DNA of 64,000 nucleotides, taken from positions 64,001 to 128,000 of IMG/VR virus record IMGVR_UViG_3300029288_000059. One strand, 5' to 3'. This stretch comes from a virus. Taxonomy: Duplodnaviria; Heunggongvirae; Uroviricota; Caudoviricetes. Under the pieces are notes generated by a model that ran no database searches, had not been told where the DNA came from, and saw only the letters and a program-made list of their open reading frames with translations. The position numbers and the translations under genes are program-made. This document shows positions 227 to 17,449 of the stretch, piece after piece (positions within the stretch are counted from its first letter, which is position 1; the number at the start of each line of letters is the position of its first letter).

Positions 227-442
227 CTACATGATTAGTACTGTTAAGTTATCTTCTTTACCAATATCAGTCACTCTATCTTTATAACCCTTATAATATT
301 TAAACTTAATATTAGTAGACATATTAAAACGAGCAATACAACGTTCAAACTTAAGAATTACATCTATGTCGTAAGGGAATGGTAATATGTATCGGTCTTC
401 TCGCATTGACATACATGGTTCGATATTTCGGTATTGCCTCAT
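227..442 (-). CDS. small RxLEPY-family protein (degenerate)
   Basis: MRQYRNIEPC N-terminus and IKFKYYKG resembling the family FKYVxG motif; start moved to ATG at 442. Confidence 0.5.
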   Translation of the reverse strand: MRQYRNIEPCMSMREDRYILPFPYDIDVILKFERCIARFNMSTNIKFKYYKGYKDRVTDIGKEDNLTVLIM

Positions 443-756
443 TATAACCACCATTGTTTGTTTAAATCATAAGAACTAATGTGATGCGTTCTATGTGGGG
501 AAGTGCGTTTTATCTCTATCTTTTTTTGAAATTGTTTCATTGCTTCACGTAATATACAATCGTCTAAGAATCGTTCAAACTGTATTAATTCAATTTTGTT
601 CGGTGAGTATTTGGTAGCGATAGGAGATGAGTTATATACATAGTTACGACTAATGACGGACTCACATTTGGTTATGCTTATTCCAACGTTACCCTTATAA
701 CTATATTTTTCTAGTAATATAGCATCATCAGTTATTGAGATTGTACGATAGGTCAT
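442..756 (-). CDS. hypothetical protein
   Basis: 104-aa ORF with upstream GGAG RBS, in operon with the RxLEPY array. Confidence 0.5.
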   Translation of the reverse strand: MTYRTISITDDAILLEKYSYKGNVGISITKCESVISRNYVYNSSPIATKYSPNKIELIQFERFLDDCILREAMKQFQKKIEIKRTSPHRTHHISSYDLNKQWWL

Positions 757-764
757 AACTACTC

Positions 765-1142
765 CTAATAATTGTAGTTGATATTATTAATTATAATAGT
801 ACCTTTATCCTCGGGTGGGGTATTAAAATCCCATCCTCGAAAAATCCTACCAACGTATAATGGACAACCATCGATTGTCCCTATATGATTATCTTGACAT
901 ATAAAGTCACCACCTACATAACGAGGACTACCCGTTAGTGAATATAATTCTATATGATTACATATAAACGTACCACTCACATATTTGAAATGTGGTAGTT
1001 GGTATTTCGTATCCATTATAACAGTCCCACGGTCGATAATATTATACAATGCACAATCATTGTATACTGTAATGCTTAATTCCCCCGTCCGTACTGATGA
1101 GTATGAGTAATTGTCATTGTATGGTTCTAAGTTTCTATTCAT
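765..1142 (-). CDS. RxLEPY-family LRR protein
   Basis: MNRNLEPY leader; LPHFKYVSG; SLTGSPRYVGGDFIC repeats. Confidence 0.75.
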   Translation of the reverse strand: MNRNLEPYNDNYSYSSVRTGELSITVYNDCALYNIIDRGTVIMDTKYQLPHFKYVSGTFICNHIELYSLTGSPRYVGGDFICQDNHIGTIDGCPLYVGRIFRGWDFNTPPEDKGTIIINNINYNY

Positions 1143-1542
1143 TTATAAATTCACCACTAATAGTAACTCCTTCAGACGAGGTAATATAGTTATGGAAATA
1201 ATTTAAACTACCACCTACATAGATAGGACAATATTTTAAACTTGTTAATTGGTTATTATCACAATCAAAATCTCTACCCACATAAATCGGACAACCCTTT
1301 AAACTTGTTAGTTTCATGTTACTACAAGTAAAGTCACCACCTACATAGATAGGGCATCCCTTTAAACTTGTTAATTGGTGATGATAACAAGCGAAATCGC
1401 CACGGGCATACTTGAAATGTGGTAATGTTTTAACCCCTGAATCATTCAAGTATTCATTATCACGAGTAATAATGTTAACATCACTAACTCGATATTTAAT
1501 AGATCTAACATCTGAACGGTATGGGTTAAGTTGTCTATTCAT
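1135..1542 (-). CDS. RxLEPY-family LRR protein
   Basis: MNRQLNPY leader; three 21-aa LTSLKxCPIYVGxxxxx repeats; ATGAATAG start/stop overlap with next gene. Confidence 0.8.
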   Translation of the reverse strand: MNRQLNPYRSDVRSIKYRVSDVNIITRDNEYLNDSGVKTLPHFKYARGDFACYHHQLTSLKGCPIYVGGDFTCSNMKLTSLKGCPIYVGRDFDCDNNQLTSLKYCPIYVGGSLNYFHNYITSSEGVTISGEFINE

Positions 1543-1960
1543 TTTGAAAACGACCTATGATTTTAATATTACGTGGTCTCTTCAAACTAATTCGATTGTC
1601 GTAACATGAAAATACATTACCTACATACTTAGGACTATATTTTAAATCAATTAAGTCATTGTTGTTACAAGTGAAATTACCTCCAACATACAACGGTGCA
1701 TATTGTAATGTTGTTAAATTATTTATATCACAATCAAAATCTCTACCCACATAGATTGGACTACCCTTTAAACTTGTTAGTTTCATTCCACTACAAGTAA
1801 TAAACCCCGCAACATATTTAAAGTTAGGTAGTCTATCATTATGTAATGTACAAGAACCTCTAATAATCATATTCGTAAATCCATCCATCCTATCGTATAA
1901 ACGAGTTAATGGTGATGAATTGCATTCTAATTGAGTATATGGTTCTAAGTCTCTATTCAT
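1535..1960 (-). CDS. RxLEPY-family LRR protein
   Basis: MNRDLEPY leader; 21-aa LRR-like repeats. Confidence 0.8.
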   Translation of the reverse strand: MNRDLEPYTQLECNSSPLTRLYDRMDGFTNMIIRGSCTLHNDRLPNFKYVAGFITCSGMKLTSLKGSPIYVGRDFDCDINNLTTLQYAPLYVGGNFTCNNNDLIDLKYSPKYVGNVFSCYDNRISLKRPRNIKIIGRFQNE

Positions 1961-2351
1961 TTTGAAAGTTACCCAATATTGTTATATGAACGGGGTGTGA
2001 TAGTTTTATTTTATTATTATAGCAATAGAATCCTCGTCCTGTATATAGAGGACTGTAATCCAAATTAGTTAATTGGTTATCCTCACAATGAAACCCACCA
2101 CCTACATAAATCGGGCAACCTTCTAAACTGGTTAATTGATTATCGTTACAGGTGAAATGACTACTCACATATTTAAATAGGGGTAGGGAATTCCCGTCTG
2201 CACGACAGTACCCTCTAATGATAATATTATTACTACCATTTAGACGAAGATAATAGTTTTGTTGTATATTATAATCGGATTCACATCTCCATTCTATTTT
2301 ACTATATGGCTCTAGTTTCCGTTTATATGGATTTATATAACTTTTCTTCAT
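1953..2351 (-). CDS. RxLEPY-family LRR protein
   Basis: RKLEPY motif; NQLTSLEGCPIYVGGGFHC repeats. Confidence 0.8.
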   Translation of the reverse strand: MKKSYINPYKRKLEPYSKIEWRCESDYNIQQNYYLRLNGSNNIIIRGYCRADGNSLPLFKYVSSHFTCNDNQLTSLEGCPIYVGGGFHCEDNQLTNLDYSPLYTGRGFYCYNNKIKLSHPVHITILGNFQNE

Positions 2352-2528
2352 ATATTAATGAACTCAATCTTGTATATGGTTCTTGTACTTATTAAATTTC
2401 TTACAGTATTTAATCCGTTTGAATGCATTGAAGTCATCAACCCCACGCCCTCATAACTACTAATGTTAATTAACAGTTAATTAAACTTAATTTAACCTAT
2501 CATTATTAATTTAACAAGACGGTATTTT

Positions 2529-2536
2529 TATAAATA
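2529..2536 (+). promoter_or_regulatory. T4-type late promoter (TATAAATA); further copies or near-copies at 9208, 11957, 18903, 21298(-), 24959, 26507, 35617, 37149, 40182, 40200(-), 49859, 57132, 57925
   Basis: match to the T4 gp55 late promoter consensus, recurring about 25-50 nt upstream of structural-gene starts. Confidence 0.7.
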
Positions 2537-2565
2537 TAACAAATAATGAATTGGAGTACAAGAAC

Positions 2566-3174
2566 ATGAGTATGAATCGTCAACAAAGATATACATATAC
2601 AATAACTTTAACCGATACAGATATCATCGGTTCGACTGTTGGATTCGTTACTAATAAGAAGATATGGCAGTATGATACGTTCACAACGGTTAAACCATTT
2701 ACTCCTGGTACTAATATACCAACATCAACCGCGATTTCAACAATGTTATCCGCTAGTAATTTTAGATGGAATCAAATATTAAAAAACATTGGATTTAATG
2801 CAATGCCTATATTAATTGGCAATGTCGTTACTAGTTCAATGACGATAGACACTTGTCCATCAACGATTACATTTGATGTAGTATATGAGAATGTTGACTA
2901 TATAACATATCCAGATAGTTTTAATGACGGGGTTGTCTTAACCGGTGTTGATGCAATAAAGAGAATGGTTTCTCTTGTATTAGCTAACCAATATTCACAA
3001 CAACTTTGTGAAGTGTTTAATGCCACTTTAGATGATTTAAATCGTCCATACGGGGTTAGTACTATTAAGATTGATATATTACCAATAGTAACTGGTTCAA
3101 CACTAGAAGCCCGTGTAACGGCATTAGAAACTAATAATATAACAGTTACCGTGGTCAAGGAAGAGATTATCTAG
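2566..3174 (+). CDS. late hypothetical protein, possibly structural
   Basis: downstream of TATAAATA and a GGAG RBS; Thr/Ile-rich composition. Confidence 0.5.
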   Translation: MSMNRQQRYTYTITLTDTDIIGSTVGFVTNKKIWQYDTFTTVKPFTPGTNIPTSTAISTMLSASNFRWNQILKNIGFNAMPILIGNVVTSSMTIDTCPSTITFDVVYENVDYITYPDSFNDGVVLTGVDAIKRMVSLVLANQYSQQLCEVFNATLDDLNRPYGVSTIKIDILPIVTGSTLEARVTALETNNITVTVVKEEII

Positions 3175-3459
3175 TTACAAAATGTTATTCATTACGGGGT
3201 GATTTATTTTTAATTCATTTGAGTCACTTTCCGTAAATTGTGATACTCTACCTTCATCATGCCATACTCTTAATGCATATAAACATTTTGTCGTACTAGT
3301 TAATAAAACGTATGTTTCATGGTTATTAGTATTTTTTAATATAATGTTAAGAGTATCACCATATGCAACGCATTGATTCCAGGTATTCCACCATAAGTTA
3401 GGATTACCTGTTTCTACTTGTAACTCACCCCGTTCTTCTTCTGGTCTAAACATAATCAT
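3175..3459 (-). CDS. hypothetical protein
   Basis: 94-aa ORF with GGAGG RBS and upstream TTGACT. Confidence 0.5.
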   Translation of the reverse strand: MIMFRPEEERGELQVETGNPNLWWNTWNQCVAYGDTLNIILKNTNNHETYVLLTSTTKCLYALRVWHDEGRVSQFTESDSNELKINHPVMNNIL

Positions 3460-3562
3460 TCCTCCATAATATATTTTTATATTATAACAAACTTTAGCTT
3501 AAAGTCAAGTAGTTGACTTTTATATTTGTATAATCTATTATGTTGAAACTGGAGATGACGGA

Positions 3563-5067
3563 TGTTATTTAACATCATATAATCTATTACATTTTATAAC
3601 AAAATACAACATTATTTGTATATAAAACATATTGACTGACTTATTAATTTAGTACATAATAACGTTAAATAATAAGGAATTTATATGATACGTACAAGTA
3701 CTCATTCTATACAAGACAGCAATACAGGTAAGTTAAACAACTTGGCTATATTGCATAATGAGTACATACGGGTATGTACGCAACTGATTGATTATTGTTG
3801 GGATAATCCAGTTATTACTTCTTATACATCAAGTGATAACATAATACATACTACTACTTTTGACGTATCACGTAATTTATTTGACTTGCCTGTATTTTTA
3901 CCAACTAACATAACAAAACTAGCCAAAATTGATACCTTTTTAACGGGTAAATCCCTTAAAAGTATCATTACTAAAGTGAATGGTATGCTTAAAGCAAGTA
4001 CTATTAAACAAAGAAAACGCATATACCAATATAATAAATTAAAGCAAGAGGGATATACTAAAAAACAACTATCTTCCCTTATTAAGAAAATAAAACAAAA
4101 TATACCACAAAAGCCAAATTGTTCCAATATCAATATGGAATACGATACCAATTGTTGTAAATTCTATTATACTAATAAAAATAACAATGAATTCAATGGG
4201 TTTGATGGCTTTTTACGTCTTACCGCCATTACTAAAAGTAAGATGAATATATGTATTCCTATTAAGATGACTAAACATTCTAATAAATTTAAAGATATTG
4301 GAAAGATGAAGACTTCCTTCCTAATAACACCAAAGAAAGTAGATATTAGATGGGATATACCAACACCACAACTCTGCACAACTGGTGAAGTTGTTGGTGC
4401 GGACCAAGGACTGTTAGATGTATTGACCCTATCAGATAAACAAGTAACAACCAAAGTAGACATACATGGACATACGCAGAAATCCATTATAGACAAAGTA
4501 TGTAGGAAGAAAAGAGGAAGTAAGGCATTTAAACGTGCTAAACAACATCAAGTCAATTTTGTTAATTGGTCTATCAACCAACTCAATTTTGATAATGTTA
4601 AGCAAGTAAATTTAGAAGATATATGGAACATTAATTATAAGAAGAATTCATGTTCAATGCTAACGCATTGGCAGAATACTATTATCAGAGACAAGTTGTT
4701 GTCTGTTTGCGAGCTACTCGGGGTCCGAGTAATCAAACAGGCATCTACTTATAGAAGTCAAAGATGTAGTGCGTGTGGACAAGTGCGGAAGTCGAATCGG
4801 AAAGGCAAGCTCTATACCTGCCATAATTGTGGTTTAGATATGGATGCAGATTTAAATGCATCTATCAATCTAAGTATGGATTTACCTGAAATCCCGTGGA
4901 ATTTACGCAAACTTAATTTGAATAGAAAAGGGTTTTACTGGACAAAAGACGGGTTGTTTAGTGATAACACCTATCTAGATAGATTAAGCGATGGGAGTTT
5001 ACAGTCCCCATCTCCGAATAAACTTAAAACAATACAAAGTTAATAATGTATTGGTTTAGGTGACTGT
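3563..5067 (+). mobile_element. non-autonomous IS607-type element 1 (TnpB only), TGT at both ends
   Basis: left end tgttatttaacatcatataatctattac shared with element 2; right end tgtattggtttaggtgactgt; removing it restores GGAG...ATG TTG AGA TAT TTA GAA CCT TAT. Confidence 0.85.
3685..5043 (+). CDS. tnpB: TnpB RNA-guided endonuclease
   Basis: RuvC motifs GADQG, NLED, DADLNA; zinc ribbon CSACG..CHNCG; KKRGSKAFKR. Confidence 0.9.
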   Translation: MIRTSTHSIQDSNTGKLNNLAILHNEYIRVCTQLIDYCWDNPVITSYTSSDNIIHTTTFDVSRNLFDLPVFLPTNITKLAKIDTFLTGKSLKSIITKVNGMLKASTIKQRKRIYQYNKLKQEGYTKKQLSSLIKKIKQNIPQKPNCSNINMEYDTNCCKFYYTNKNNNEFNGFDGFLRLTAITKSKMNICIPIKMTKHSNKFKDIGKMKTSFLITPKKVDIRWDIPTPQLCTTGEVVGADQGLLDVLTLSDKQVTTKVDIHGHTQKSIIDKVCRKKRGSKAFKRAKQHQVNFVNWSINQLNFDNVKQVNLEDIWNINYKKNSCSMLTHWQNTIIRDKLLSVCELLGVRVIKQASTYRSQRCSACGQVRKSNRKGKLYTCHNCGLDMDADLNASINLSMDLPEIPWNLRKLNLNRKGFYWTKDGLFSDNTYLDRLSDGSLQSPSPNKLKTIQS

Positions 5068-5083
5068 TGAGATATTTAGAACC
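4985..5083 (+). ncRNA. 3' part of predicted omegaRNA plus guide of element 1
   Basis: hairpin GATGGG-loop(ACAGTC)-CCCATC, second hairpin CAATACA..TGTATTG, terminal GACTGT complementary to the loop; 5' boundary not determined. Confidence 0.65.
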
Positions 5084-5360
5084 TTATAATTCAATACAAC
5101 GTACTCCTATTATACATTTAAAGAATACTAATATGATTAGTCGTGAATCCATATATGTTCGTTGGTATCATAATTCAATTAAATATATTGGTTCCGATGT
5201 ATACGTTAGAGAGGATGAATTTATAATTAACAATTACCCTCGATATATTGGCGGTAAATTAATGGTATCAGGAGTTAGTTATACATCGATGGTTAATGAT
5301 TTCACACGTTATATTAATGATCATGGTATCGTTATAATGAAAGGATTAAGTTTTGGTTAG
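5067..5360 (+). CDS. RxLEPY-family protein whose ATG/RBS were separated by element 1
   Basis: (M)LRYLEPY; degenerate KYIG/PRYIGG repeats. Confidence 0.65.
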   Translation: MRYLEPYNSIQRTPIIHLKNTNMISRESIYVRWYHNSIKYIGSDVYVREDEFIINNYPRYIGGKLMVSGVSYTSMVNDFTRYINDHGIVIMKGLSFG

Positions 5361-5640
5361 GTATTTAGAGCCTTATATCCAACATATAGATATTAATGAT
5401 GTAGTTAGATATAAACGCTATATCTGTCGTAAGAACCTATCATTAGAAAAACTTAATATGGATAGTATATTATCAATCAAATATATTAACGGTAAATTGT
5501 ATTATAAATCATTAGACCAATGGAAGAATCACGATTTTACTTTTTATTGTAATACATTGGAATATCAGAACCTATGGTGTGATTACCCAACCATTTTTCT
5601 TGGAAGTAGATTTCATGAATGTGGTATAATCCATGTATAG
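5353..5640 (+). CDS. RxLEPY-family protein
   Basis: VRYLEPY; IKYING degenerate repeat. Confidence 0.6.
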   Translation: MVRYLEPYIQHIDINDVVRYKRYICRKNLSLEKLNMDSILSIKYINGKLYYKSLDQWKNHDFTFYCNTLEYQNLWCDYPTIFLGSRFHECGIIHV

Positions 5641-5899
5641 AAATTTAGAACCATACAAAAAAATAATACATAATAATAGTGAAGTTTATAGTACTTCCCA
5701 TGAGTATAAATTTACTTGTAAATCTATAGAACAGAAGTATAAGAATCAAGTATTGCGTTTTGATAGCTACTATTCCAGCGACATATATTACAATTTCTAT
5801 TTTGGTTATAGAATATTCAATAACGTAGGAATGGATAATCAACCATTGAAATATGGTACTAATATATTTGAACATATGGGCGTCTTTTTGGAACTGTAA
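5633..5899 (+). CDS. RxLEPY-family protein
   Basis: MYRNLEPY leader. Confidence 0.6.
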   Translation: MYRNLEPYKKIIHNNSEVYSTSHEYKFTCKSIEQKYKNQVLRFDSYYSSDIYYNFYFGYRIFNNVGMDNQPLKYGTNIFEHMGVFLEL

Positions 5900-5912
5900 T
5901 ATTGGGTCAACG

Positions 5913-6197
5913 ATGATTAGACTTCTTGAACCATACTTAACTTATAGTTTATCCCATAATAAATTAAGAGATATGCATTAGTATTCTTATAATTGTATTA
6001 CTAGTGGTAGTAAACAGATTCTGTGTAGTCACGAATTATGTTGTAATTTAATTCACCAAGTTACGATTATTCATAATGATAAACGTGATGATAGTGACTA
6101 TTATAGAATGTTTTTACGAATGAAGTATTTTAATATGAATTATAATGAACGCTCATACGAATTCGTTCATGTGAAACATTGTGATATAGGTCGTTAA
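5913..6197 (+). pseudogene. RxLEPY-family gene with in-frame TAG at 5979-5981
   Basis: ATG ATT AGA CTT CTT GAA CCA TAC (MIRLLEPY); frame stays open after the TAG until TAA at 6195. Confidence 0.55.
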
Positions 6198-6883
6198 ATA
6201 ACCCCTTCATTACGATAGAATGTATATAACGTTTCAATCCATTCATCTTTGAGTGTATCAAATTCTTTACCATTAAAGACAAACTCTTGATATCCCCCTG
6301 TTCTATCGGCTATAAACAATACACCTTGATTTATATTTGTATCGTATAATTGATTATGTGCTATGGCGTATGCTGCGAGTTGTAACTGATACCCTTTAAT
6401 ATATTCTAGTTTTTTAGGTTTTTTTGTATTCTTATAGTCCATTATACTTGGAACACCTTTAAACGTCCCAATAAGGTCACTAGTACCAGCATAAAGCCCT
6501 TCCATATATAAACGGGCTTCACAGCCCCATACCTCCTGTACGTTGATTACCCCCTTATTTACGATGGCATTAGCTTGTAGTTGGGCAATCTTATATATCG
6601 CATTAGAATAATTAGGTATGGGTGTACCATTAACAACATATTCTTCTAACATTTCATGCATTAACGTACCTAGTTCAGATGCTTCTTTACCTTCACGCTC
6701 GGCTTGTTTGACACCAATACGTTTTTTCCATTCTTCTAAGAACGCATGGTCACTAGTTTCACCAAGTATCGTTGTAACTGAATGTATGTACTTATGAGTC
6801 TTAGGACATAGATATACCCGTCTACCCTTTGAATCAGTATTACGTTCGAATGTTGGATAGATATACTTATTAAGAATATGCAT
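6194..6883 (-). CDS. PD-(D/E)xK exonuclease (Cas4/MGME1-like phage exonuclease)
   Basis: SVTTIL, GTLMH, AGTSDLIG, DYKN, QLAAYA motifs. Confidence 0.85.
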   Translation of the reverse strand: MHILNKYIYPTFERNTDSKGRRVYLCPKTHKYIHSVTTILGETSDHAFLEEWKKRIGVKQAEREGKEASELGTLMHEMLEEYVVNGTPIPNYSNAIYKIAQLQANAIVNKGVINVQEVWGCEARLYMEGLYAGTSDLIGTFKGVPSIMDYKNTKKPKKLEYIKGYQLQLAAYAIAHNQLYDTNINQGVLFIADRTGGYQEFVFNGKEFDTLKDEWIETLYTFYRNEGVI

Positions 6884-6967
6884 TATATAGGTTCCCAGTA
6901 ACAAAATTAAATTTTGACTTACGTATGTAATATGTTAAAGTTAATTGAATTTAAAGGAGAAGTCAAA

Positions 6968-7339
6968 ATGTATATGATTAGCAAGACGGTTGAATTAGGA
7001 CATTCTATTTATACTGGTGGTTCTATCCGAATTGGTTTAGAATTCGATGATGTCGTAAATGATACAGATAAGGAATTTTATTCAAAGTTAATTGATTCAT
7101 TAGACCATACAATTATTACCATCGATGAATCAATTAAACAACAATCACGTAGATATTTTTTATTGAAGTCTTCATCTAATATTTTTTATGATATATGTTA
7201 TGTAATAACTAGTCTATTGAAAGATTCACCTAAGAGTAATAAGGAAAGATTTAAAATCCATATTGAATACGGGGATGAAACATATACGGGTGGGATGATA
7301 GTTGGTGAACATTTAATAAGTTATAATATAGAGGGTTAG
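6968..7339 (+). CDS. hypothetical protein, possibly a degenerate QueD-fold paralog
   Basis: MYMISK..GHS and LDH resemble QueD motifs; adjacent to queD. Confidence 0.4.
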   Translation: MYMISKTVELGHSIYTGGSIRIGLEFDDVVNDTDKEFYSKLIDSLDHTIITIDESIKQQSRRYFLLKSSSNIFYDICYVITSLLKDSPKSNKERFKIHIEYGDETYTGGMIVGEHLISYNIEG

Positions 7340-7342
7340 TAC

Positions 7343-7936
7343 ATGATTATTAGAAAACAGTTCAAATTTAATAATACTCACGTCGTTAGAAATTGTTCTA
7401 GTGAACGTTGTAAGCATAGTATTCATTCCCATACATATAAAGTAGAACTATTATTTGAAGCTCATGGTTTAGATAATGGTCATATGGTAATGGATTTTGG
7501 ATTAATGAAAGATAATATCAAAGATATTATTATGTCATTTAATAAATCTGTTACATATTGGGACAAAGACACTAGTGAATATATTGATTCTGTTAAAGGT
7601 GATAGGTGGATTAGTTTACCAGTGAATCCATCAGCTGAACAAATAAGTAGAGTTATATTCATGCTAGTAAACTCAATTATTAGTAAGACTGAGTTTGCTA
7701 ACGGTGAATGTACTCCTATTGTAAATTCTGTAATTGTACACGAGACAGAAACAGGATATGCACAGTGCTTTAGAGAAGATGTTACTAATCCTAATATGGG
7801 AACTATAACACTTGATACAATTATAGTTTCCGATGGGGTCGCGTCTTCTTGGAAAGATAAAGACTTATATAACAAGATTAAGTCTAGTAATCGTATTGAG
7901 TTCATTAATGTTAAACCGTTGATTCAGGTACAATAG
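7343..7936 (+). CDS. queD: 6-carboxytetrahydropterin synthase (long QueD type)
   Basis: HVVRNCSSERCKHSIHSHTYKVE, MDFGLMK, PSAEQ, VHETETGYA. Confidence 0.85.
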   Translation: MIIRKQFKFNNTHVVRNCSSERCKHSIHSHTYKVELLFEAHGLDNGHMVMDFGLMKDNIKDIIMSFNKSVTYWDKDTSEYIDSVKGDRWISLPVNPSAEQISRVIFMLVNSIISKTEFANGECTPIVNSVIVHETETGYAQCFREDVTNPNMGTITLDTIIVSDGVASSWKDKDLYNKIKSSNRIEFINVKPLIQVQ

Positions 7937-8242
7937 ATGAATAGTAGAGATATCATACTTGAGAATAGTTTTAATGAACTAGTTCGTTATATGGAAGAAG
8001 AAATCCCTAGTTACGAGTTTGTATCTGGAATTGAATACTTTAAGAAGATGACTGAGTTTCACGCCAATGATATGGACGCAGTAATTGCTTATGATACCAT
8101 TATACAGTTATATAATTGGTGGAAATATAAGAGACCTACTCGTCCCGAGCCATTAAATGTAACGGATATGGAATCTAATATGATGGAAGACAATGTAAAG
8201 TTCTCAAGTTTGGCTAGTGTTTGGAGTTGGTTATGGATTTAA
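7937..8242 (+). CDS. hypothetical protein, paralog of downstream gene
   Basis: LYNWWK..RPTRPEP and terminal LW motif shared with 8233-8817. Confidence 0.55.
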   Translation: MNSRDIILENSFNELVRYMEEEIPSYEFVSGIEYFKKMTEFHANDMDAVIAYDTIIQLYNWWKYKRPTRPEPLNVTDMESNMMEDNVKFSSLASVWSWLWI

Positions 8243-8817: not shown

Positions 8818-8827
8818 GGAGTAACAA

Positions 8828-9178
8828 TTGAATAGAAACTTAGAATCATACCAATCAGACATTGAATTTAGTGAGTATCGAGTTAGTGATGTTAATATTA
8901 TCACTCGTGATAAGGTAGACTTGAGCGGTTTATCTTTAGTAACATTACCTCATTTCAAAAGTATAGGTGGTAATTTAGATTGTCGTCATAACCAATTAAC
9001 TAGTTTAAAAGGATGTCCTACTTATATAAGTGGTACTTTAGATTGTCGTTATAATCAATTAACAAGTTTAGAAGGATGTCCTACCAGTATAGGTGGTGGT
9101 TTATATTGTTATCATAACAAAGACAAATTATCGTGTCCTAAAGGGGTTGAGATTGGAGGGAAATTTATAAATTCATGA
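8828..9178 (+). CDS. RxLEPY-family LRR protein (mosaic)
   Basis: NRNLESY leader; LRR DNA nearly identical to the PcfJ-LRR genes. Confidence 0.8.
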   Translation: MNRNLESYQSDIEFSEYRVSDVNIITRDKVDLSGLSLVTLPHFKSIGGNLDCRHNQLTSLKGCPTYISGTLDCRYNQLTSLEGCPTSIGGGLYCYHNKDKLSCPKGVEIGGKFINS

Positions 9179-9254: not shown

Positions 9255-10025
9255 ATGGTAAAACAACAAAAGAAGAATACACGGTTTAATAAACAAACAA
9301 GACGTACCGATAAGGCTGGATTCCAACAAGACCAAACTAAAAAAGTATCAATCGTGCCGAAACATAATAATATCGAAGTTATTCCTCGTAATGTGGAACA
9401 AGAAAAATATCTTGAAATGTTAAATGACCCTAGTAAATTTGTTGTTGTTTGTACCGGACGGGCAGGTAGTGGTAAAACCCATTTAGCAACTTTATGGGCA
9501 ATCCAACAATATCAAATGGGTAAAGCAGATAAGATTGTTATTACACGCCCTAACGTGGCGACTGATGGTATGGGTATTGGTTTTATGCCGGGTACACTTA
9601 TTGAAAAGATGTGGGATTGGATTGGTCCATTTGTTGACGCATTCTATCAAGCCGGATATTCTAAGATTGAATTGGAAAAATTCTTAGAGATTGGCGTTAT
9701 AGAAATTATTCCTATTGCATTTATAAGAGGGCGTTCATTAACTGATTGTGTTATCTTAGCAGATGAATGTCAAAACTTAACTAAGAATTCAATGCTTAGT
9801 ATCTTAACCCGTTTTGGTAAGAATTCTAAATTGGTTGTAATTGGTGATGTTAAACAATCTGATTTGGGTAGAGATAATAAGAATGGATTGGGCGACTTTA
9901 TTGAAAGATTTAAAAGTCGAGTAGATAGTGGTGTCGCGGTAACGTCATTGACACAGTGTGAACGTCATCCCGTAATCCAAGAGATATTGGACGTATATGA
10001 AGCCAATGGAGTTTGGGATAGTTAA
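9255..10025 (+). CDS. phoH: PhoH-like ATPase
   Basis: GRAGSGKT, ITRP, GFMPG, FIRGRSL, DECQN, GDVKQSD. Confidence 0.95.
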   Translation: MVKQQKKNTRFNKQTRRTDKAGFQQDQTKKVSIVPKHNNIEVIPRNVEQEKYLEMLNDPSKFVVVCTGRAGSGKTHLATLWAIQQYQMGKADKIVITRPNVATDGMGIGFMPGTLIEKMWDWIGPFVDAFYQAGYSKIELEKFLEIGVIEIIPIAFIRGRSLTDCVILADECQNLTKNSMLSILTRFGKNSKLVVIGDVKQSDLGRDNKNGLGDFIERFKSRVDSGVAVTSLTQCERHPVIQEILDVYEANGVWDS

Positions 10026-10026
10026 T

Positions 10027-10329
10027 ATGAGTATTGTAACGTATCGTAATATTGAACTCTTACCATTAACGTTTGTTTTGGAACAAATTACTAATGGTGA
10101 TGTTGTATCTAATTCATTAACCGATTGGATGAATGAATTCTTACGACAAGTTCAATATTTACGAACTACTAATGATATGATGTATGATTATTATCCTTAT
10201 GTTACTAATATGGTAACTAACGATTGTTTAGTTGGAATTACAACGATTGATAATATAACGATAGAACAAGCTAAATCGTTACTAATCACTATTAATGATA
10301 AGTTTTTTAATAATAATCCATTGTTTTAA
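10027..10329 (+). CDS. hypothetical protein
   Basis: ORF directly following phoH. Confidence 0.45.
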   Translation: MSIVTYRNIELLPLTFVLEQITNGDVVSNSLTDWMNEFLRQVQYLRTTNDMMYDYYPYVTNMVTNDCLVGITTIDNITIEQAKSLLITINDKFFNNNPLF

Positions 10330-10377
10330 TGTTATATTGTTTAATAGTTAAACTATTAATAAACGAGAAAAACCCAA

Positions 10378-10590
10378 ATGACTAGTATAGAAACAACGAT
10401 TGATGATACAATTAAACTTCATGGGAAGGTTAATGATGCATTACAGGATATGACAAGGGGTGAACCTTATCTTTCTAATAAAGAATGTGCGACTATTATT
10501 GACAAGATAATAGCTAAAAATAAAGAAATGGAGTACGAATTGAATTTATTAGCCGAAGATGTGAGTATTAACCCACACGATTATAATTAG
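10378..10590 (+). CDS. hypothetical protein
   Basis: 70-aa ORF. Confidence 0.45.
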   Translation: MTSIETTIDDTIKLHGKVNDALQDMTRGEPYLSNKECATIIDKIIAKNKEMEYELNLLAEDVSINPHDYN

Positions 10591-10623
10591 TACCTCGTTT
10601 AAACAATTAAACCACAATGGTAT

Positions 10624-10645
10624 AGGTGAGTATTAATACTCACCT
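10624..10645. terminator. palindrome between convergent genes, probable terminator
   Basis: perfect palindrome AGGTGAGTATTAATACTCACCT. Confidence 0.5.
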
Positions 10646-10942
10646 CTATTTTGATGCCTTATAATGTGCTGTTATAGTTACAACATCTATTTTAATTGAA
10701 GATTTACGGTTCTTATCCGTATTGAATAGACGGTCCAGTCGTATCAGTTCACCCAATATCAAATCTAAACTTCCTATCTTTTTAGTAAGTTTTCGATAAC
10801 CGGCAATACTTTTCCAATCTTTATTACTTTTTTTCATATAATTAATGATTTCTCTGAACGTATGTACCTTACGTCCCTTACCAATAGTATAATATATTGG
10901 TAATGTTCGTACCATTTTGGCGAATTTATGACGTTTTGACAT
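10646..10942 (-). CDS. basic hypothetical early protein
   Basis: AAGGAG RBS and early promoter upstream. Confidence 0.55.
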   Translation of the reverse strand: MSKRHKFAKMVRTLPIYYTIGKGRKVHTFREIINYMKKSNKDWKSIAGYRKLTKKIGSLDLILGELIRLDRLFNTDKNRKSSIKIDVVTITAHYKASK

Positions 10943-10965
10943 TGTAGTTCTCCTTGGTATGTTGT

Positions 10966-11003
10966 TTATAATTTAAGTATAACATATTATATTATAATGT
11001 CAA
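10966..11003 (-). promoter_or_regulatory. repeated early promoter TTGACA-N16/18-TATA(C/T)TTAAATTATAA; related copies near 11026(+), 14636(+), 18892(-), 26495(-), 32130(-), 32140(+), 37138(-), 48525(+), 58514(+), 58897(+), 62320(-), 63287(-)
   Basis: sigma70 -35/-10 with a conserved extension, recurring upstream of small accessory genes. Confidence 0.75.
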
Positions 11004-11085
11004 CTCTTATTTTAATAGAAAGTAATTGACTTAATATTGCATTATATGTTATATTAAAATTATAACATTATATAAGGAATATAAC

Positions 11086-11556
11086 ATGAAAGATTATACA
11101 TTAGAAGATTTAGAACGTGATGGTGGTTTTGGTTTGGATATAGACCTTAAACCAATTCCGTATGTCACCCATCTTCAAAAAACTCAGTTAGAAGAATTAA
11201 ACGAATTAATTTGTACTTTAAAGAATTTAAAGATTGGTGATTCATTTACTGTAAAGACGTATGACGAATTACAAAGAATAAGATATAAGTCTGCAGTTCT
11301 TCATGTTAATTTGCAATATGAACAAATTGATGATGGTTATCGTATAACTGCTATTGGTGAGAATGGTAATGACCTACTAATAAAACATAAGAAGGAAATG
11401 ATGGAATTATTAAAAAAGATGAAATCAGGGGAATCTTTTGTGATTAAGTCTACATCTAATCATAGGCATCAATATGTAAGATATGGACGTGAGTTGGGTA
11501 TTAAAATAGCCACTCGTTATGAATATAAAGACCATTATCGTGTTTGGAAGCTATAA
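11086..11556 (+). CDS. hypothetical protein with duplicated small domain
   Basis: two copies of a G[DE]SFx[VI]...YR[IV] unit; paralog of next gene. Confidence 0.6.
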   Translation: MKDYTLEDLERDGGFGLDIDLKPIPYVTHLQKTQLEELNELICTLKNLKIGDSFTVKTYDELQRIRYKSAVLHVNLQYEQIDDGYRITAIGENGNDLLIKHKKEMMELLKKMKSGESFVIKSTSNHRHQYVRYGRELGIKIATRYEYKDHYRVWKL

Positions 11557-11567
11557 GGAATATTACG

Positions 11568-11951
11568 ATGACAGAATGCATATTAGAGATTTTACAAGAT
11601 GTTGACATACTAAGTATTGCCGATACATTAAGAAATTTAAAACATGGTGATGTTATTAATGTTCGTACCAGTAAAGAACTATGTATCATATATGATGTGG
11701 CAGATAAGTTAAGAATAAAATTAGTTACTAGTAAACAGGAAAATGGGTATTATCTCGTATTAGATAGCGTTCGTACAGAACAGTATAGAAATAAAATCAT
11801 TAAACTACTTAGTCGAATGGAACATGGTGATTCATTTTGCATTGTTAAACGAAGTGATGATATATATTATAATAATATTAGTAAAAGAATTGGAATTAAT
11901 ATAGTTGCTCGTAGAGTATGTGATAATTATTATCGAATTTGGAAGATTTAA
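11568..11951 (+). CDS. paralog of upstream duplicated-domain protein
   Basis: LKHGDVI / MEHGDSF..YYRIWK. Confidence 0.6.
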   Translation: MTECILEILQDVDILSIADTLRNLKHGDVINVRTSKELCIIYDVADKLRIKLVTSKQENGYYLVLDSVRTEQYRNKIIKLLSRMEHGDSFCIVKRSDDIYYNNISKRIGINIVARRVCDNYYRIWKI

Positions 11952-11984
11952 AATCCCATAAATATAACAGTATGGGAGTTAATA

Positions 11985-13004
11985 ATGGTTAATATATTAA
12001 AGTTATTAGATGAGAAACGTTCACACGATGGATTGAACGTAAGAGTATCAACATATCAATTTTTATCAAAATATAAAAATGACCCAAATGCTTATCTACA
12101 TACATCAGCTATTAAGAAGATTGGTATTAAACCATTAACAAATGCAGAAGATGATACTCCATTAGGCGTTTATACTTTTAAAATAATGGATATATGGAAA
12201 CGGATTGAAGCTAGTAAGGATAAGAATGATTTATCATATCAACTAACTTACTATGGTGGTCCTGAATTATACATACTGCATCCAACTAAACCAATCATGG
12301 ATGAAAATACTTATACATTAAGTATGTATAAGAAAGATTTGAAACGATTAAATATTACACAAAAACGTGAATTAGAATTATTGTCCGATACTGGATATAA
12401 GTATAAGAATCTAAAACTACCATTATATAGATTTTGGGAAATAACTAAGTTATATGTTTGTGACTTCGACTATGGTGCTAATAACCCAGTTAAATGGAAT
12501 AACTTGTTAAGAAAGTTAGGCTATTATATTTTTAGTGATGATGGGGTTGGTTATATTCATGACCACGAACCAGTTCAAACGGTATTCTTAACAACTAATG
12601 CATTTGAAGTAATTGATACACATTATAACAATGAAGTATATAAAGTTAAGGTAGATGATAAAGAGTTACGTTCAAACCGTTTATCATCTATAATGAATAC
12701 TAAAACTTTACATCCATCTTACGATGATGAAATTCGTCCTGAACAATACCGTAATGTAAAAGTATGGAATGTTAAGGAAGTTGGATTACAAGAGTTACAT
12801 GACTTCTATGATGATTATGGTAGGACTGGTATGACTATTAATGTTGGTAAATTAGTTATCCCACATACTGTTATTGATTCATTAGACTATATATGTGATA
12901 ATATGAATAAATTTAAAACTATTAATGTTAATACTGTACATATTGATGGTGGTAAGAAAGAGGATTATGATTTAATCCCCTTTAAGTATAATGGTATTGT
13001 ATAA
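11985..13004 (+). CDS. putative virion-internal protein with MVNILKLL(N/D)E leader
   Basis: leader shared with five other proteins; CATAAATA upstream. Confidence 0.6.
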   Translation: MVNILKLLDEKRSHDGLNVRVSTYQFLSKYKNDPNAYLHTSAIKKIGIKPLTNAEDDTPLGVYTFKIMDIWKRIEASKDKNDLSYQLTYYGGPELYILHPTKPIMDENTYTLSMYKKDLKRLNITQKRELELLSDTGYKYKNLKLPLYRFWEITKLYVCDFDYGANNPVKWNNLLRKLGYYIFSDDGVGYIHDHEPVQTVFLTTNAFEVIDTHYNNEVYKVKVDDKELRSNRLSSIMNTKTLHPSYDDEIRPEQYRNVKVWNVKEVGLQELHDFYDDYGRTGMTINVGKLVIPHTVIDSLDYICDNMNKFKTINVNTVHIDGGKKEDYDLIPFKYNGIV

Positions 13005-13017
13005 TCTGTTATGATAA

Positions 13018-14523
13018 TGTTAATTAACTTCATATAATCTATTACATTTTATAATATAATACAACATTATTTGTATATAAATAATATATTGACTTCTTTG
13101 TTAATGAAGTACATACTAACTTTAAATAATAAGGAAGTTATATGATTAGAACTAGTACTCATAATATACAACAAAGCAATACAGGTAAGTTATCTAACTT
13201 AGCTATATTGCATAATGAGTATATACGTGTATGTTCTCAACTGATTGATTATTGTTGGGATAATCCAGTTATTACTTCATATACGTCAAGCGATAACATA
13301 ACCCATACTACTACTTTTGATGTATCACGTAATTTATTTGATTTGCCTGTATTTTTACCAACTAACATAACAAAATTAGCTAAAATTAATACTTTTTTGA
13401 CAGGTAAATCACTTAAAAGTATCATTACTAAAGTGAATGGTATGCTTAAAGCAAGTACTACGAAACAAAGGAAACGTATATACCAATATAATAAATTAAA
13501 ACAAGATGGATATACTAAAAAGCAATTATCACAACTGATTAAAAAAATAAAACAAAATATACCACAGAAACCAAATTGTTCCAATATTAATATGGAATAC
13601 GATACCAACTGTTGTAAATTCTATACAACTAATAAAAATAACAATGAATTCAATGGGGTTGATGGCTTTTTACGTCTTACTGCCATTACTAAAAGTAAGA
13701 TGAATATATGTATTCCTATTAATATGACTCGTCACTCGAATAAATTCAAGACTATTGGTAAAATGAAGACTTCCTTCCTAATAACACCAAAGAAAGTAGA
13801 TATTAGATGGGATATTCCTACTCCTGTATTACGCACAACTGGTAGTATAGTCGGTGCAGACCAAGGACTATTAGACGTATTAACCCTATCAGATACACAA
13901 GTTACCACTAACGAAGACATACATGGACATACTCAAAAATCCATACTAGACAAGGTATGTCGTAAGAAAAGAGGTAGTAAGGCCTTTAAACGTGCTAAAC
14001 AACACCAAGTCAACTTCGTTAATTGGTCAATCAACCAACTCAATTTTGATAATGTTAAGCAAGTAAATTTAGAAGATATATGGAACATTAACTATAAGAA
14101 GAATTCATGTCAAATGCTAAAACATTGGCAGAATACTATCATCAGAGACAAGTTGTTGTCTGTTTGTGAATCACTCGGGGTCCGAGTGGAGAAGCAGGCA
14201 TCTACTTATAGAAGTCAAAGATGTAGTTGTTGTGGGCAAGTGCGGAAATCGAATCGGAAAGGGAAAACCTATACGTGCCATAATTGTGGTTTAGAACTAG
14301 ATGCAGACTTAAATGCATCTATCAATCTAAGTATGAAGTTGCCTGAAATCCCGTGGAATATCCGCAAACTTAATTTAAATAGAAAAGGGTTTTACTGGAC
14401 TGCCAATGGCATATTCAGTGATAATACCTATCTAGATAGATTAAGTGATGGGCGTTTACAGTCCCCATCACCAAAAAACTTAAAACAATACAAGGTTAAT
14501 AATGTATTGGTTTAGGTGACTGT
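13018..14523 (+). mobile_element. non-autonomous IS607-type element 2 (TnpB only)
   Basis: closely related to element 1 over its whole length; TGT at both ends; flanks differ. Confidence 0.85.
13142..14515 (+). CDS. tnpB: TnpB RNA-guided endonuclease
   Basis: intact RuvC D/E/D motifs, zinc ribbon. Confidence 0.9.
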   Translation: MIRTSTHNIQQSNTGKLSNLAILHNEYIRVCSQLIDYCWDNPVITSYTSSDNITHTTTFDVSRNLFDLPVFLPTNITKLAKINTFLTGKSLKSIITKVNGMLKASTTKQRKRIYQYNKLKQDGYTKKQLSQLIKKIKQNIPQKPNCSNINMEYDTNCCKFYTTNKNNNEFNGVDGFLRLTAITKSKMNICIPINMTRHSNKFKTIGKMKTSFLITPKKVDIRWDIPTPVLRTTGSIVGADQGLLDVLTLSDTQVTTNEDIHGHTQKSILDKVCRKKRGSKAFKRAKQHQVNFVNWSINQLNFDNVKQVNLEDIWNINYKKNSCQMLKHWQNTIIRDKLLSVCESLGVRVEKQASTYRSQRCSCCGQVRKSNRKGKTYTCHNCGLELDADLNASINLSMKLPEIPWNIRKLNLNRKGFYWTANGIFSDNTYLDRLSDGRLQSPSPKNLKQYKVNNVLV

Positions 14524-14697
14524 AAAAACTCTTAATCCTTGTTTTATTGATTTATTAAGGAGATGTTTTGTCCTTCTTGCATATATTGAATGAATCTTTC
14601 TCTTCTGTTTCAACTACTGAATTAATGATTGTCTATTGACTTAGTAATGAAATACTATTATACTTAAATTATAAATTGAACATTAGGAGTAACAATA

Positions 14698-14994
14698 ATG
14701 AGTTTATTTTATGTAACCACTAATGCATTAGAGTGTGGAATTGGTTTATATCATGGTGAATTATTGGAGAATAATAAAGTAGTCTTACAAGCAGATAAAA
14801 AGGAATACGAGTTAAACGTTGATTGTTTTACCAGTTTAACGGCTGCACGTAATAAGTTACGGGAAATGACTGATGATGAGATTAACCGTTTAGAGTGTAA
14901 TATAAGCAATTTAAAGAATACGTTGAATCGTTTAAAGAATTCACCTTTTTGTTCTAGTAATTTTATTGACTGTGAAGATGTTAATTTAACATGA
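14698..14994 (+). CDS. hypothetical early protein
   Basis: early promoter plus AGGAG RBS; coiled-coil-like C-terminus. Confidence 0.55.
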   Translation: MSLFYVTTNALECGIGLYHGELLENNKVVLQADKKEYELNVDCFTSLTAARNKLREMTDDEINRLECNISNLKNTLNRLKNSPFCSSNFIDCEDVNLT

Positions 14995-15368
14995 CTAGAT
15001 ATTTAGAACCATATAAAGAACAGAAGGGAAGTTACCCACGTATATGTAGTGATAGGTATTATGAATTGAACGCTAGTCATAAATGGAAAAATATCATCAC
15101 TCGTTATTCATTAGTATTAACAACTCGTGCTACTCCAACTCATATAATTCCGAGTATTAAGTACATTAATTGGAATATAACAATGGAGGACGGTAGTTTG
15201 TTGCCCGTGTGTAAGAACCCCTTTTATGTAGGAAATGATATTTTTACAAATGGAAATACATCAAATGACTTAGTAGAACATTATGTATTAGGCGAACATA
15301 CAAAATGGTATTGTAATGTTTCTAAAAATAGTTCACCTTTTTATGTAACTCATTGTAGCAGTATATAA
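14991..15368 (+). CDS. RxLEPY-family protein (degenerate LRR)
   Basis: MTRYLEPY, NIITR, IKYIN, PFYVG. Confidence 0.7.
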   Translation: MTRYLEPYKEQKGSYPRICSDRYYELNASHKWKNIITRYSLVLTTRATPTHIIPSIKYINWNITMEDGSLLPVCKNPFYVGNDIFTNGNTSNDLVEHYVLGEHTKWYCNVSKNSSPFYVTHCSSI

Positions 15369-15739
15369 TGAGATATTTAGAGCCATATATCAAGCATGAT
15401 AATTCTATATTAAATAATACGTATGAAGACGTTGTACTTCGTAGTCGTGAAGAATCGAATTATAGTAATATAATAGTGAGAGGTACGGCAGCGATTGGTT
15501 GTAGTAGAAGTTGGTTTCGTCCTTATTATAAGTATGTAAAAGACAACTTTTTAGGTAGTCCGATTTATGCAGGAGGATTATTATGTTGTAATAATTTTGG
15601 TTTAAAATCATTAGACAGATTTCCATTAGCGATAGGTAAAGATTTATATTATTCAAATAATAATATTCCCATTCACGAAGTTATATCAAAAATTCATCCT
15701 TTTGTTGGTGGGTTACTTATAAGTAATAAATATACTTAG
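15368..15739 (+). CDS. RxLEPY-family LRR protein
   Basis: MRYLEPY, NIIVRG, SPIYAGG, LKSLDRFPLAIG. Confidence 0.7.
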   Translation: MRYLEPYIKHDNSILNNTYEDVVLRSREESNYSNIIVRGTAAIGCSRSWFRPYYKYVKDNFLGSPIYAGGLLCCNNFGLKSLDRFPLAIGKDLYYSNNNIPIHEVISKIHPFVGGLLISNKYT

Positions 15740-15769
15740 GATTTTTAATTTGTTAATGGGGTATTCATA

Positions 15770-16462
15770 ATGCGTATAGATGATATAGAAGTAGGATTGA
15801 ATGAGGAAATACTAACTAATCTTACTCATAACCCTAACGAATTTCCAAGTAAGTATAGATTCGAATTAGGATTAAAAATTGTATCTAATAATGTACATAA
15901 TATTATACAAAACATTGCTGATGCATATATTATATCACTATTAGATAAACGCAGTGTATTTGATATTATTAATGAAGAACATGGAAGTATAAGTGATACA
16001 TTAGCCGTTATAAATGATGCATTACATAATTATTCAGACCATGATAGTTTTTTAAAGTTTGTATCCGCCAAAGATTGCAAACAAGAACTACAAAAATTAG
16101 TTAAGATATCAAATCTTGTTTTAGACCGTTCTTATTCATTAAGAGTTAATATTGATAAAACCTTACCTCAAGAATTTCAAAGTTTGTTATTTCAATGTTG
16201 TTGTACATTAATGGATGTTTGCTCTAATATAACATTAGGGTGTCGTAGTGTTGTAACTAATGTATATAGAGAACCTAAGATGCAATTTTCTATTGGTAAG
16301 TTATCTATGAAAGTAAGAGATTTTTTATATGCCGTTCAAAAGAATAGTAATCCTATTGAGGAAGATGAAGCGTGCGGCTTATCAGAATTAGAAGTGCAAC
16401 AACTGCGTGCATTGAGAAAATTAAAGAAACAATTAGATGAGATGCAGTTTAAAGACATTTAA
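15770..16462 (+). CDS. hypothetical protein, possibly virion-internal
   Basis: MRIDDIEVGLNEE N-terminus contains an LNE like the leader family. Confidence 0.5.
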   Translation: MRIDDIEVGLNEEILTNLTHNPNEFPSKYRFELGLKIVSNNVHNIIQNIADAYIISLLDKRSVFDIINEEHGSISDTLAVINDALHNYSDHDSFLKFVSAKDCKQELQKLVKISNLVLDRSYSLRVNIDKTLPQEFQSLLFQCCCTLMDVCSNITLGCRSVVTNVYREPKMQFSIGKLSMKVRDFLYAVQKNSNPIEEDEACGLSELEVQQLRALRKLKKQLDEMQFKDI

Positions 16463-16465
16463 TCA

Positions 16466-16663
16466 TCATTCATAAAGACGACCTGATAAGTATTTACGGT
16501 CGGGTAATCCGTCATTAAGATGTTGTTTATTAAACCAAAAATCACCTCTTATTATTATATTTTTGTTGTTACTGGATATGTAACCAATTGAATAATTCTA
16601 GTTAATATATGGGTACTCGTCGTATTCCTCATTATATGGTTCTAAATAACGGAATCTCATCAT
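16466..16663 (-). pseudogene. RxLEPY-family gene with in-frame TAG at 16598-16600
   Basis: MMRFRYLEPY...YIN*NYS...NIIIRGD...LPDRKYLSG; family motifs continue in frame past the TAG. Confidence 0.6.
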
Positions 16664-16941
16664 CAAACTCGTTTTTCTAATTCTGATATAGAACAGTTCT
16701 TTAGCTCATTAATACCCGGTTCTTTAATTACATTATTTATCAACATCATCGAACCATTTAGGAATAACGTTAATAGGAAAATCCCGTGCATACCAAAAGA
16801 ACCACTATATAGCATCATCAAACCATTTAGGAATATTAGTCCGAAGATAAACTTACGAATCTTTAGAAATTTACGCCGATTATACGATACTGAATATAAG
16901 TATGCATTATATAACGATTGATATCTTGTGAATTTATCCAT
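16663..16941 (-). CDS. small membrane protein (2 TM)
   Basis: two hydrophobic segments; AGGAG RBS. Confidence 0.55.
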   Translation of the reverse strand: MDKFTRYQSLYNAYLYSVSYNRRKFLKIRKFIFGLIFLNGLMMLYSGSFGMHGIFLLTLFLNGSMMLINNVIKEPGINELKNCSISELEKRV

Positions 16942-16990
16942 TATTTAAGTCTCCTCTTTTGTGATATATTATTGTATTCATCGAATTATG

Positions 16991-17449
16991 TCAATCTGTT
17001 AGGCGTCTAAATTTCCCATGGACTATTAATGTTGGTGGTTGTATTGGTATACCAGTACGATTAGTATAAATAAAATCACCCCGTACTTCAGTATTAATAT
17101 CTTCTAAATTGGTTATATTGGTACTACTATAAATTGCATTCTTGCCTATATAGAGAGGACTATATTTGGCAGAAGTAAGTTCATAATTTAATGAACAGTC
17201 AACGTCACCACCTACATATAACGGACAACCATATAATGATTCTATCTTCAAATTACAAATACAGAATTTACCAGCCACATATTTAAATTTTGGTAAATTA
17301 ATAATACGCGAACCATATAAGAAGACATCATTCCGAGTTATAATATTACCCGTGGTGCATAAGTAACGAGTGGTAATATTATGTTCACGCCATTGTTCTT
17401 CAGGATATCTACTATTAAAGATTTGATATGGTTCAATAGTCCTAATCAT
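16991..17449 (-). CDS. RxLEPY-family LRR protein
   Basis: MIRTIEPY, NIITR, LPKFKYVAG, SLYGCPLYVGG. Confidence 0.75.
   Translation of the reverse strand: MIRTIEPYQIFNSRYPEEQWREHNITTRYLCTTGNIITRNDVFLYGSRIINLPKFKYVAGKFCICNLKIESLYGCPLYVGGDVDCSLNYELTSAKYSPLYIGKNAIYSSTNITNLEDINTEVRGDFIYTNRTGIPIQPPTLIVHGKFRRLTD

Follow-up and report, generated by a model that had tools for sequence, protein, structure and literature searches.

A large family of small leucine-rich repeat proteins sharing an N-terminal RxLEPY motif in a T4-like jumbo phage contig

The locus and the gene family

Here, we describe a family of small phage genes whose products begin with a constant motif, R-x-L-E-P-Y (hereafter RxLEPY, or the tag), joined to variable bodies built from leucine-rich repeats (LRRs). 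The genes were analysed in a 64,000-nucleotide stretch of DNA, referred to as the window, which corresponds to bases 64001-128000 of the IMG/VR virus contig IMGVR_UViG_3300029288_000059 (289,811 bp; ~30% G+C; 79% complete according to CheckV). The reading that we favor, with a probability of about 0.45, is that the motif is an exposed short linear tag giving all paralogs one shared interaction, with the LRR face giving each its own target.

The contig belongs to an uncultured T4-like jumbo phage. It carries baseplate wedge and virion structural genes, an RNA ligase of the T4 Rnl1 type, and a gp21-like prohead protease (PF03420, Peptidase_S77; 90.8 bits; genome 284589-285059(-)). A megablast search with the first 20 kb found no match among 50,697 phage records.

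The strict pattern R.[LI]EPY occurs 29 times in the 290-kb genome, where a mean of 0.3 is expected from 10 block shuffles, and 11 of these occurrences lie in the window, all before 17.5 kb. When loose variants are included, ~39 open reading frames (ORFs) of at least 60 amino acids (aa) begin with M-x-R-x-L-E-P-Y or a variant of it genome-wide, and a profile built from the window members matches 58 segments across the contig. The initial annotation of this DNA, made from the letters alone, had listed 14 motif-led starts and proposed a family of at least 13 genes; all 14 starts were found again, 12 as intact ORFs and two as relics, and the expanded family is real, though larger than proposed, with ~40 members genome-wide. 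The members and related features of the window are collected in Table 1.

Where the genes stand in tandem arrays, the stop codon of one gene and the start codon of the following gene share ATGAATAG or a similar overlap, and spacings of -8, -4, and -1 are common across the genome. Of the overlaps noted earlier, three of the ATGAATAG kind lie in the array at 1135, 1535, and 1953. The first gene of this array encodes an N-terminal extension that is retained in its ortholog P0191. The two decaying copies, at 16469-16663(-) and 5913-5981(+), point to gene death alongside expansion.

Table 1. Members of the RxLEPY family and related features, in window coordinates
Position	Strand	Feature	Remarks
1-238	+	Family member, 3' part	RGLEPY start ~20 nt before the window; genome 63978-64238
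227-442	-	71-aa variant member, RNIEPC	Body unrecognizable as LRR
765-1142	-	125-aa member with tag, NIIDRG, and 2 LRRs	Body profile score 107 bits
1135-1542	-	135-aa member, RQLNPY, 4 LRRs	First AlphaFold2 target
1535-1960	-	141-aa member, 4 LRRs	ATGAATAG overlap with neighbor
1953-2351	-	132-aa member, first gene of the array	A degenerate extra copy, INPY, precedes the motif, which occupies residues 11-16
5067-5360	+	97-aa member, decayed LRR, TTG start	Abuts right end of TnpB element; body profile score 19 bits
5353-5640	+	95-aa member, decayed LRR	Body profile score 15 bits
5633-5899	+	88-aa member, LRR undetectable	Body profile score 0 bits
5913-5981	+	22-aa stub led by the tag, truncated relic	
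8828-9178	+	116-aa member, RNLESY, TTG start, 3 LRRs	
14636-14680	+	Consensus early promoter: TTGACT, 17 nt, TATACT, extended -10	Drives operon 14698-15739
14991-15368	+	125-aa member	Gene 2 of early operon
15368-15739	+	123-aa member	Gene 3 of the same early operon as 14991
16469-16663	-	Pseudogene relic	Tag, in-frame stop after 21 aa, same-frame NIIIRG and LPxxKY remnants
16991-17449	-	152-aa member, RTIEPY	8-nt overlap with RNA ligase gene; early promoter near 18870 upstream
26542-27777	+	PcfJ-LRR fusion, MVNILKLLNE leader	Same LRR module, no RxLEPY tag
43853-45088	+	Second PcfJ-LRR fusion, same leader	

A TnpB element at 3685-5066 touches the family, as its right end adjoins the start of the RxLEPY gene at 5067-5360(+), whose start codon is now TTG. 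Its would-be guide, 20 nt in the region 5045-5087(+), encodes RYLEPY and matches three other family starts (5357-5376, 14995-15014, and 15369-15388) with 2-3 mismatches. Counting the element's own flank and an unrelated site at 63312-63331(-), there are five matches in the window, against 0.04 expected.

Architecture of the proteins

The members follow one order of parts: the tag M-x-R-x-L-E-P-Y, a variable linker, NIIxRG-x-V-x-L, LPxFKYVxGxFxC, a run of 21-residue repeats, and a C-cap ending near G-x-F-I-N-E. Alignment of the members thereby bears out the NIIxRG, LPxFKYVxG, and 21-residue repeat blocks first noticed in the sequence and adds the C-cap to them. The linker, measured from Y8 to NIIxR, extends from ~13 to more than 50 residues and is variable in sequence as well, and the number of recognizable repeat units ranges up to ~7 per member, with none in the decayed members.

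From these proteins, 43 repeats of 21 residues were extracted, in which C1, N4, L6, L9, and L/F20 are conserved (entropy 0.3-1.5 bits) in the register x-[LF]-x-C-x-x-N-x-L. At the scaffold positions of the core (C1, N4, L6, T7, S8, L9, P13, Y15, V16, and G17), the entropy is 0.3-1.3 bits. It reaches ~3 bits or more at each x of x-[LF]-x-C-x-x-N, four positions that in canonical LRRs belong to the strand of the concave face, and the variable LRR face proposed earlier does map to the canonical binding face.

Two members were modelled with AlphaFold2, from alignments of 21 and 36 sequences, and the predicted local distance difference test score (pLDDT) of the solenoid was 85-98 in the two models. 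The top matches in the PDB are nearly all LRR proteins (InlC, SspH1, IpaH), at a weak level (Foldseek E 0.2-2; template modelling [TM] score by query ~0.5), and the matches in BFVD, likewise with weak E-values, are viral LRR proteins. Phage LRR_4 clusters in the ESM Atlas give TM scores of 0.80-0.86, one of them being a PcfJ+LRR_4 cluster, and the clusters nearest in fold are mostly viral. The bodies are thus true LRR solenoids.

Against Pfam LRR_4, the best of the small members reaches 19.3 bits versus a cut-off of 27, and Pfam and PHROGs scans of ten small members gave nothing meaningful; the PcfJ fusion P0002, described below, scores 32.9 bits and is above the cut-off. As to whether the tag is also found on unrelated bodies, all tagged proteins are small and at least 27 are clearly LRR proteins: when the bodies were scored without the tag using a hidden Markov model, 27 members were well above 800 shuffles and 11-12 were the same as the shuffles. 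The motif thus persists where the LRRs have decayed, as had been claimed, and because these 11-12 proteins mostly keep NIIxR, their undetectable bodies are probably those of decayed paralogs.

The viral LRR family to which the bodies belong

A search with the repeat profile recovered 16,073 representative proteins at E≤1e-3; with the threshold at E≤1e-10, the number is 7,864. The initial annotation had recognized the LRR type correctly and overlooked this very large existing viral family, sequence homologs of which are found in Vibrio phages and in megaphages of 640-735 kb. The wider family (NxLTSLxGxPxxVGGxFxC, including PcfJ-LRR proteins) has the same repeat as the RxLEPY proteins and the same N-cap, hydrophobic-x-hydrophobic-x-G-x-V-x-L followed by LPxxFxxVxG. 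It differs in its leaders, which are of the MK[HY]LKxYxxFES type, and usually in an extra helical segment of ~40 aa; an RxLEPY-tagged expansion of ~40 copies is seen only in this phage lineage.

Among the ~250 homologs retrieved from other phages, none carries the tag outside this clade. Of the 251 retrieved, which come from other phages and metagenomes, 92 have a first [LIM]-x-E that ends within residues 8-13, and 33 clearly carry a leader of the form MK[HY]LKx[YF]xxFE[SA]. A 735-kb megaphage, LR756501.1, has a tandem of four LRR proteins (230287-242664; 238-290 aa) with leaders such as MIKKFESY and MIKTFKLYE; neighboring non-LRR proteins have leaders that end in FINEN or FLNEN, and the leader-tagged proteins there are of the capsid-targeting type discussed below. 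A literature search on phage LRR multigene families and virion LRR proteins found nothing relevant.

Conservation of the tag

The arginine of the tag is residue 3 in 33 of 43 members. It is encoded by AGA, CGA, AGG, CGT, or CGC, the leucine by TTA, TTG, CTT, CTA, or CTG, and the proline by all four of its codons, in proportions near the genome background except for a modest excess of AGA and CCA, the commonest codons, and a scarcity of CGT. The two x positions vary freely. Since the motif codons vary synonymously in this way and the x positions are free, conservation acts on the protein, and the protein-level selection proposed at the outset is well founded (five Arg, five Leu, and four Pro codons).

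A signal at the level of RNA, for translation or as a RegA-type operator, was also considered and was rejected because the x positions and synonymous sites vary freely.

Syntenic orthologs are present on two short contigs of one JGI metagenome, at 54-69% identity, with the motif intact and the flanks diverged; one ortholog is a repeat longer or shorter, and one gene is absent. The ratio of nonsynonymous to synonymous substitution rates (dN/dS) is 0.44-0.68 for the L027 pairs and 0.23-0.39 for the three L026 pairs; the latter are clear orthologs and include two decayed members. Between orthologs, dS is 0.45-1.2. The members are genuine genes that evolve under purifying selection, and copies are both gained and lost within the family. 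When a single member was used to search viral contigs for related loci, no relative was found; relatives came from the two JGI contigs only. An exact-pattern scan of IMG/VR with the commonest tag codons gave nine loci, all in unrelated portal-like or other genes.

Promoters and expression class

Early promoters were defined from the phage's own multicopy motif, as a generic sigma-70 scan gave 137 sites where 136.8 were expected. The resulting promoter is of an extended sigma-70 type (TTGACA, ~15 nt, TGTTATACTTAAATTATAA) and is found at 40 sites in the genome with two mismatches or fewer, most of them with a recognizable TTGAC -35 element and most ahead of small-gene operons. Besides the consensus site in Table 1, sites lie near 18870(-), 10981(-), 11050(+), 26473(-), 32108(-), 37116(-), and 58537(+).

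Five members lie in operons behind an early promoter, namely those at 14991, 15368, and 16991-17449 (the RNA-ligase operon) and two elsewhere in the genome. The earlier statement that several members follow early promoters therefore stands for these five and does not extend to most of the family, for which no promoter is assignable.

Of the 61 copies of the T4-type late motif TATAAATA, 27 precede a gene start by 20-60 nt. There are 35 genes, including many structural ones, with the motif in the 100 nt ahead of their start (e.g., at 2529, before 2551-3174(+)). No RxLEPY member has TATAAATA directly upstream.

Position of the tag relative to the fold

In the two AlphaFold2 models, residues 1-10 have a pLDDT of 55 and 46 and residues 11-20 of 59 and 59, after which the next block rises to 85-87; the tag has no secondary structure. 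The models thus place the motif outside the confidently folded solenoid. One should nevertheless consider that RxLEPY folds back on the NIIxR strand, covers the N-terminal end of the solenoid, and is conserved for stability only, a buried cap that the initial annotation had itself named as the case against its own proposal.

This explanation is disfavored because both AlphaFold2 runs leave the tag at low confidence, with pLDDT 46-59 against 85-98 in the body. A linker that varies in length and sequence is a further difficulty for it, as is the fact that the PcfJ fusions and the retrieved homologs of other phages have the N-cap strand and LRRs without any tag. What speaks for a cap is the arginine of NIIxR: it is specific to the tagged clade, other phage LRRs having N, D, K, or G at this position, and RxLEPY and NIIxR persist together even in decayed members. 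Such co-occurrence would fit an intramolecular contact or a composite epitope. The first model also has a single beta-bridge, at residue 9. We consider a purely structural cap unlikely, and do not place it lower because the clade-specific arginine travels with the tag.

A capsid-targeting leader in the same phage

At least 11 proteins of the phage begin with a second N-terminal leader, MVNILKLLNE or a close variant, of 10 residues and always ending in L/I-x-E. With hydrophobic residues at positions 4 and 7, L at 8, and E at 10, this leader fits the pattern of the T4 capsid-targeting sequence (CTS). In the window, genes with this leader start at 11985, 18939, 26542, 43853, 45123, and 46870 on the plus strand; others are at genome 3001-4299(-), 46223-47521(+), 158716(+), and 287017-287391(-). 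The bodies behind it include four PcfJ-LRR fusions of 411-432 aa and at least three unrelated ones, and the putative scaffold adjoining the prohead protease begins with a related leader. In the four fusions, the C-terminal LRR module is the same as that of the RxLEPY family and there is no RxLEPY; the initial annotation, which placed the LRR module on the tagged genes, was right in this and missed the fusions with their T4-type leader.

The T4 CTS has the sequence MKTYQEFIAE (PMC8442874), and gp21 cuts after L/I-x-E (PMC3012670, PMC9026906). The first 10 residues of IPIII suffice for packaging (PMC9026906, PMC3012670); for targeting, the important residues are 4 and 7, for cutting 8 and 10, and a D10 mutant is still packaged (PMC9026906).

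An [LI]-x-E ending at residues 8-20 is present in only two of 39 tagged proteins, compared with 78 of 374 other genes (21%). Because this defining cut site was looked for and is lacking in all but those two, RxLEPY was not filed as a canonical CTS, and by its sequence the tag is distinct from the phage's own T4-type leader.

A tag that has lost the cut site and still loads the LRR proteins into proheads for injection is another matter, and the packaging of the D10 mutant speaks for it. The phage has a gp21-like prohead protease, the [LIM]-x-E leaders of 92 of 251 homologs from other phages are suggestive, and some of those leaders read RHIKPYQ, which is near RxLEPYQ. Moreover, L5 and Y8 of the tag share the i, i+3 spacing of T4 CTS residues 4 and 7. 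The tag may even descend from the first half of an MK[HY]LKx[YF]xxFE[SA]-type leader, five of seven positions matching RHIKPYQ. Yet a clear CTS-type leader, unlike RxLEPY, is already carried by at least 11 proteins, the proline of the tag is unsuited to a helical leader, and the cut site is rarer in tagged proteins than in other genes. The promoters point the same way, with five members in early operons and none directly behind TATAAATA. An uncleaved capsid-targeting tag is, on this balance, quite unlikely.

Lifetime signals and shared inheritance

The extreme N-terminal position of the motif, its invariant Arg and Leu, its modelled flexibility, and the early-gene class of some members would also suit a lifetime or processing signal, that is, a degron or cleavage site (e.g., after R-x, exposing Leu) for scheduled clearance by a host protease. 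This we regard as very unlikely: no phage-encoded ClpP, ClpS, or Lon was found in a search of the 79%-complete contig, and the tag is not known to resemble N-terminal motifs recognized by ClpX.

That the 5' ends were merely kept alike by tandem duplication and gene conversion, with no function of their own, is suggested by the 8-nt overlaps of the arrays, where adjoining stop and start codons share ATGAATAG, and by the modest excess of AGA and CCA, but is highly improbable given the five Arg, five Leu, and four Pro codons in use, the freely varying x positions, the retention of the motif by dispersed single copies as well as by orthologs at dS 0.45-1.2, and the divergence of flanking residues where the motif does not diverge.

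Proposed function of the tag

We return to the reading of RxLEPY as an exposed tag for one shared interaction. The ~40 genes for small LRR binders are a lineage-specific expansion, with birth and death of copies. On this account, the flexible N-terminal M-x-R-x-L-E-P-Y would act as a short linear motif that docks on, or addresses the protein to, a common partner, while the hypervariable concave face of the LRRs would provide a separate target for each paralog. At least part of the family would be made early in infection. Because the tag differs from the capsid-targeting leader, the LRR module would then come with two kinds of address: a CTS on the PcfJ-LRR proteins, which are probably packaged and injected, and RxLEPY on the small proteins, which would be made after infection. 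We infer both the binding of a partner by the tag and the host origin of the targets.

A more specific version holds that RxLEPY is a second addressing system beside the CTS, tethering ~40 LRR binders to one hub of host or phage origin and made early to neutralize or redirect many host proteins. This version is offered tentatively, as a possibility that is more doubtful than not.

There are several observations that weigh against a docking tag and should be kept in mind. Because the tag occurs on no proteins but paralogs, common ancestry alone accounts for part of its constancy and fixed position. The arginine of NIIxR accompanies the tag, also in decayed members, as an intramolecular contact would have it, and AlphaFold2 with 21-36 sequences may miss a real cap. 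Most members and arrays have no promoter that can be assigned from the phage promoter motifs, and the contig encodes no ClpP, ClpS, or Lon that could serve as a hub.

Comparison with known systems

By analogy, the closest working counterpart is the set of T4 internal proteins with the CTS. Like the RxLEPY proteins, IPI, IPII, IPIII, and Alt join a short constant leader to small bodies of great diversity, the phage being T4-like and equipped with a gp21-like protease in both cases, and the bodies of the T4 internal proteins are thought to act on host defenses (PMC3012670, PMC9026906, PMC8442874). RxLEPY differs in having no L/I-x-E site, in containing a proline, and in being found only on paralogous LRR-derived bodies; furthermore, it coexists with a canonical CTS-like leader, and several of its members lie in early operons.

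The eukaryotic F-box-LRR proteins (FBXL, of SCF ligases) share the logic of a constant N-terminal docking element joined to a variable LRR in an expanded family. The F-box, which binds Skp1, is a folded domain of 40-50 residues, whereas the RxLEPY element has eight residues, and there is no ubiquitin-like or protease hub in the contig. No Pfam family, the F-box (PF00646 and others) included, was found at E≤1 over the N-terminus of ten small members. The comparison with F-box-LRR proteins made in the initial annotation is thus useful as an analogy of logic and does not extend to a shared domain.

The best fold matches in the PDB belong to the company of IpaH, SspH1/2, YopM, and InlC, whose LRRs of 20-22 residues form a solenoid that binds the target and is preceded by an N-terminal signal region. 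Here, by contrast, the matches are weak, there is no type III secretion context, and the proteins are 60-220 aa long. No NEL E3 ligase domain was detected by Pfam, and the C-cap directly follows the last repeat.

An N-terminal Arg-x-Leu motif on large, fast-diverging effector families is also known from the Plasmodium PEXEL (RxLxE/Q/D) and the oomycete RxLR. The resemblance to RxLEPY is one of pattern and logic only, as the signal-peptide and export biology is unrelated.

Significance

The phage LRR family comprises more than 16,000 sequence clusters without known function. What is particular to the phage described here is the size of the expansion and the presence of a second, non-CTS tag beside the canonical one in the same genome. 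It offers a natural experiment in which one LRR scaffold, some 40 binders, and two N-terminal labels occur in a single phage; one label resembles the head-loading signal of T4 and the other is new.

Finding the binding partner of the tag would name the common partner of dozens of variable binders and give a handle on their targets, and the tag might possibly be portable, for sending engineered binders to that partner. Even if the tag is only a cap, the family would still clearly exemplify how a viral binder repertoire diversifies by birth and death of genes. If the tag does tether the binders to one hub, the phage would encode a modular adaptor repertoire that works like the F-box-LRR proteins.

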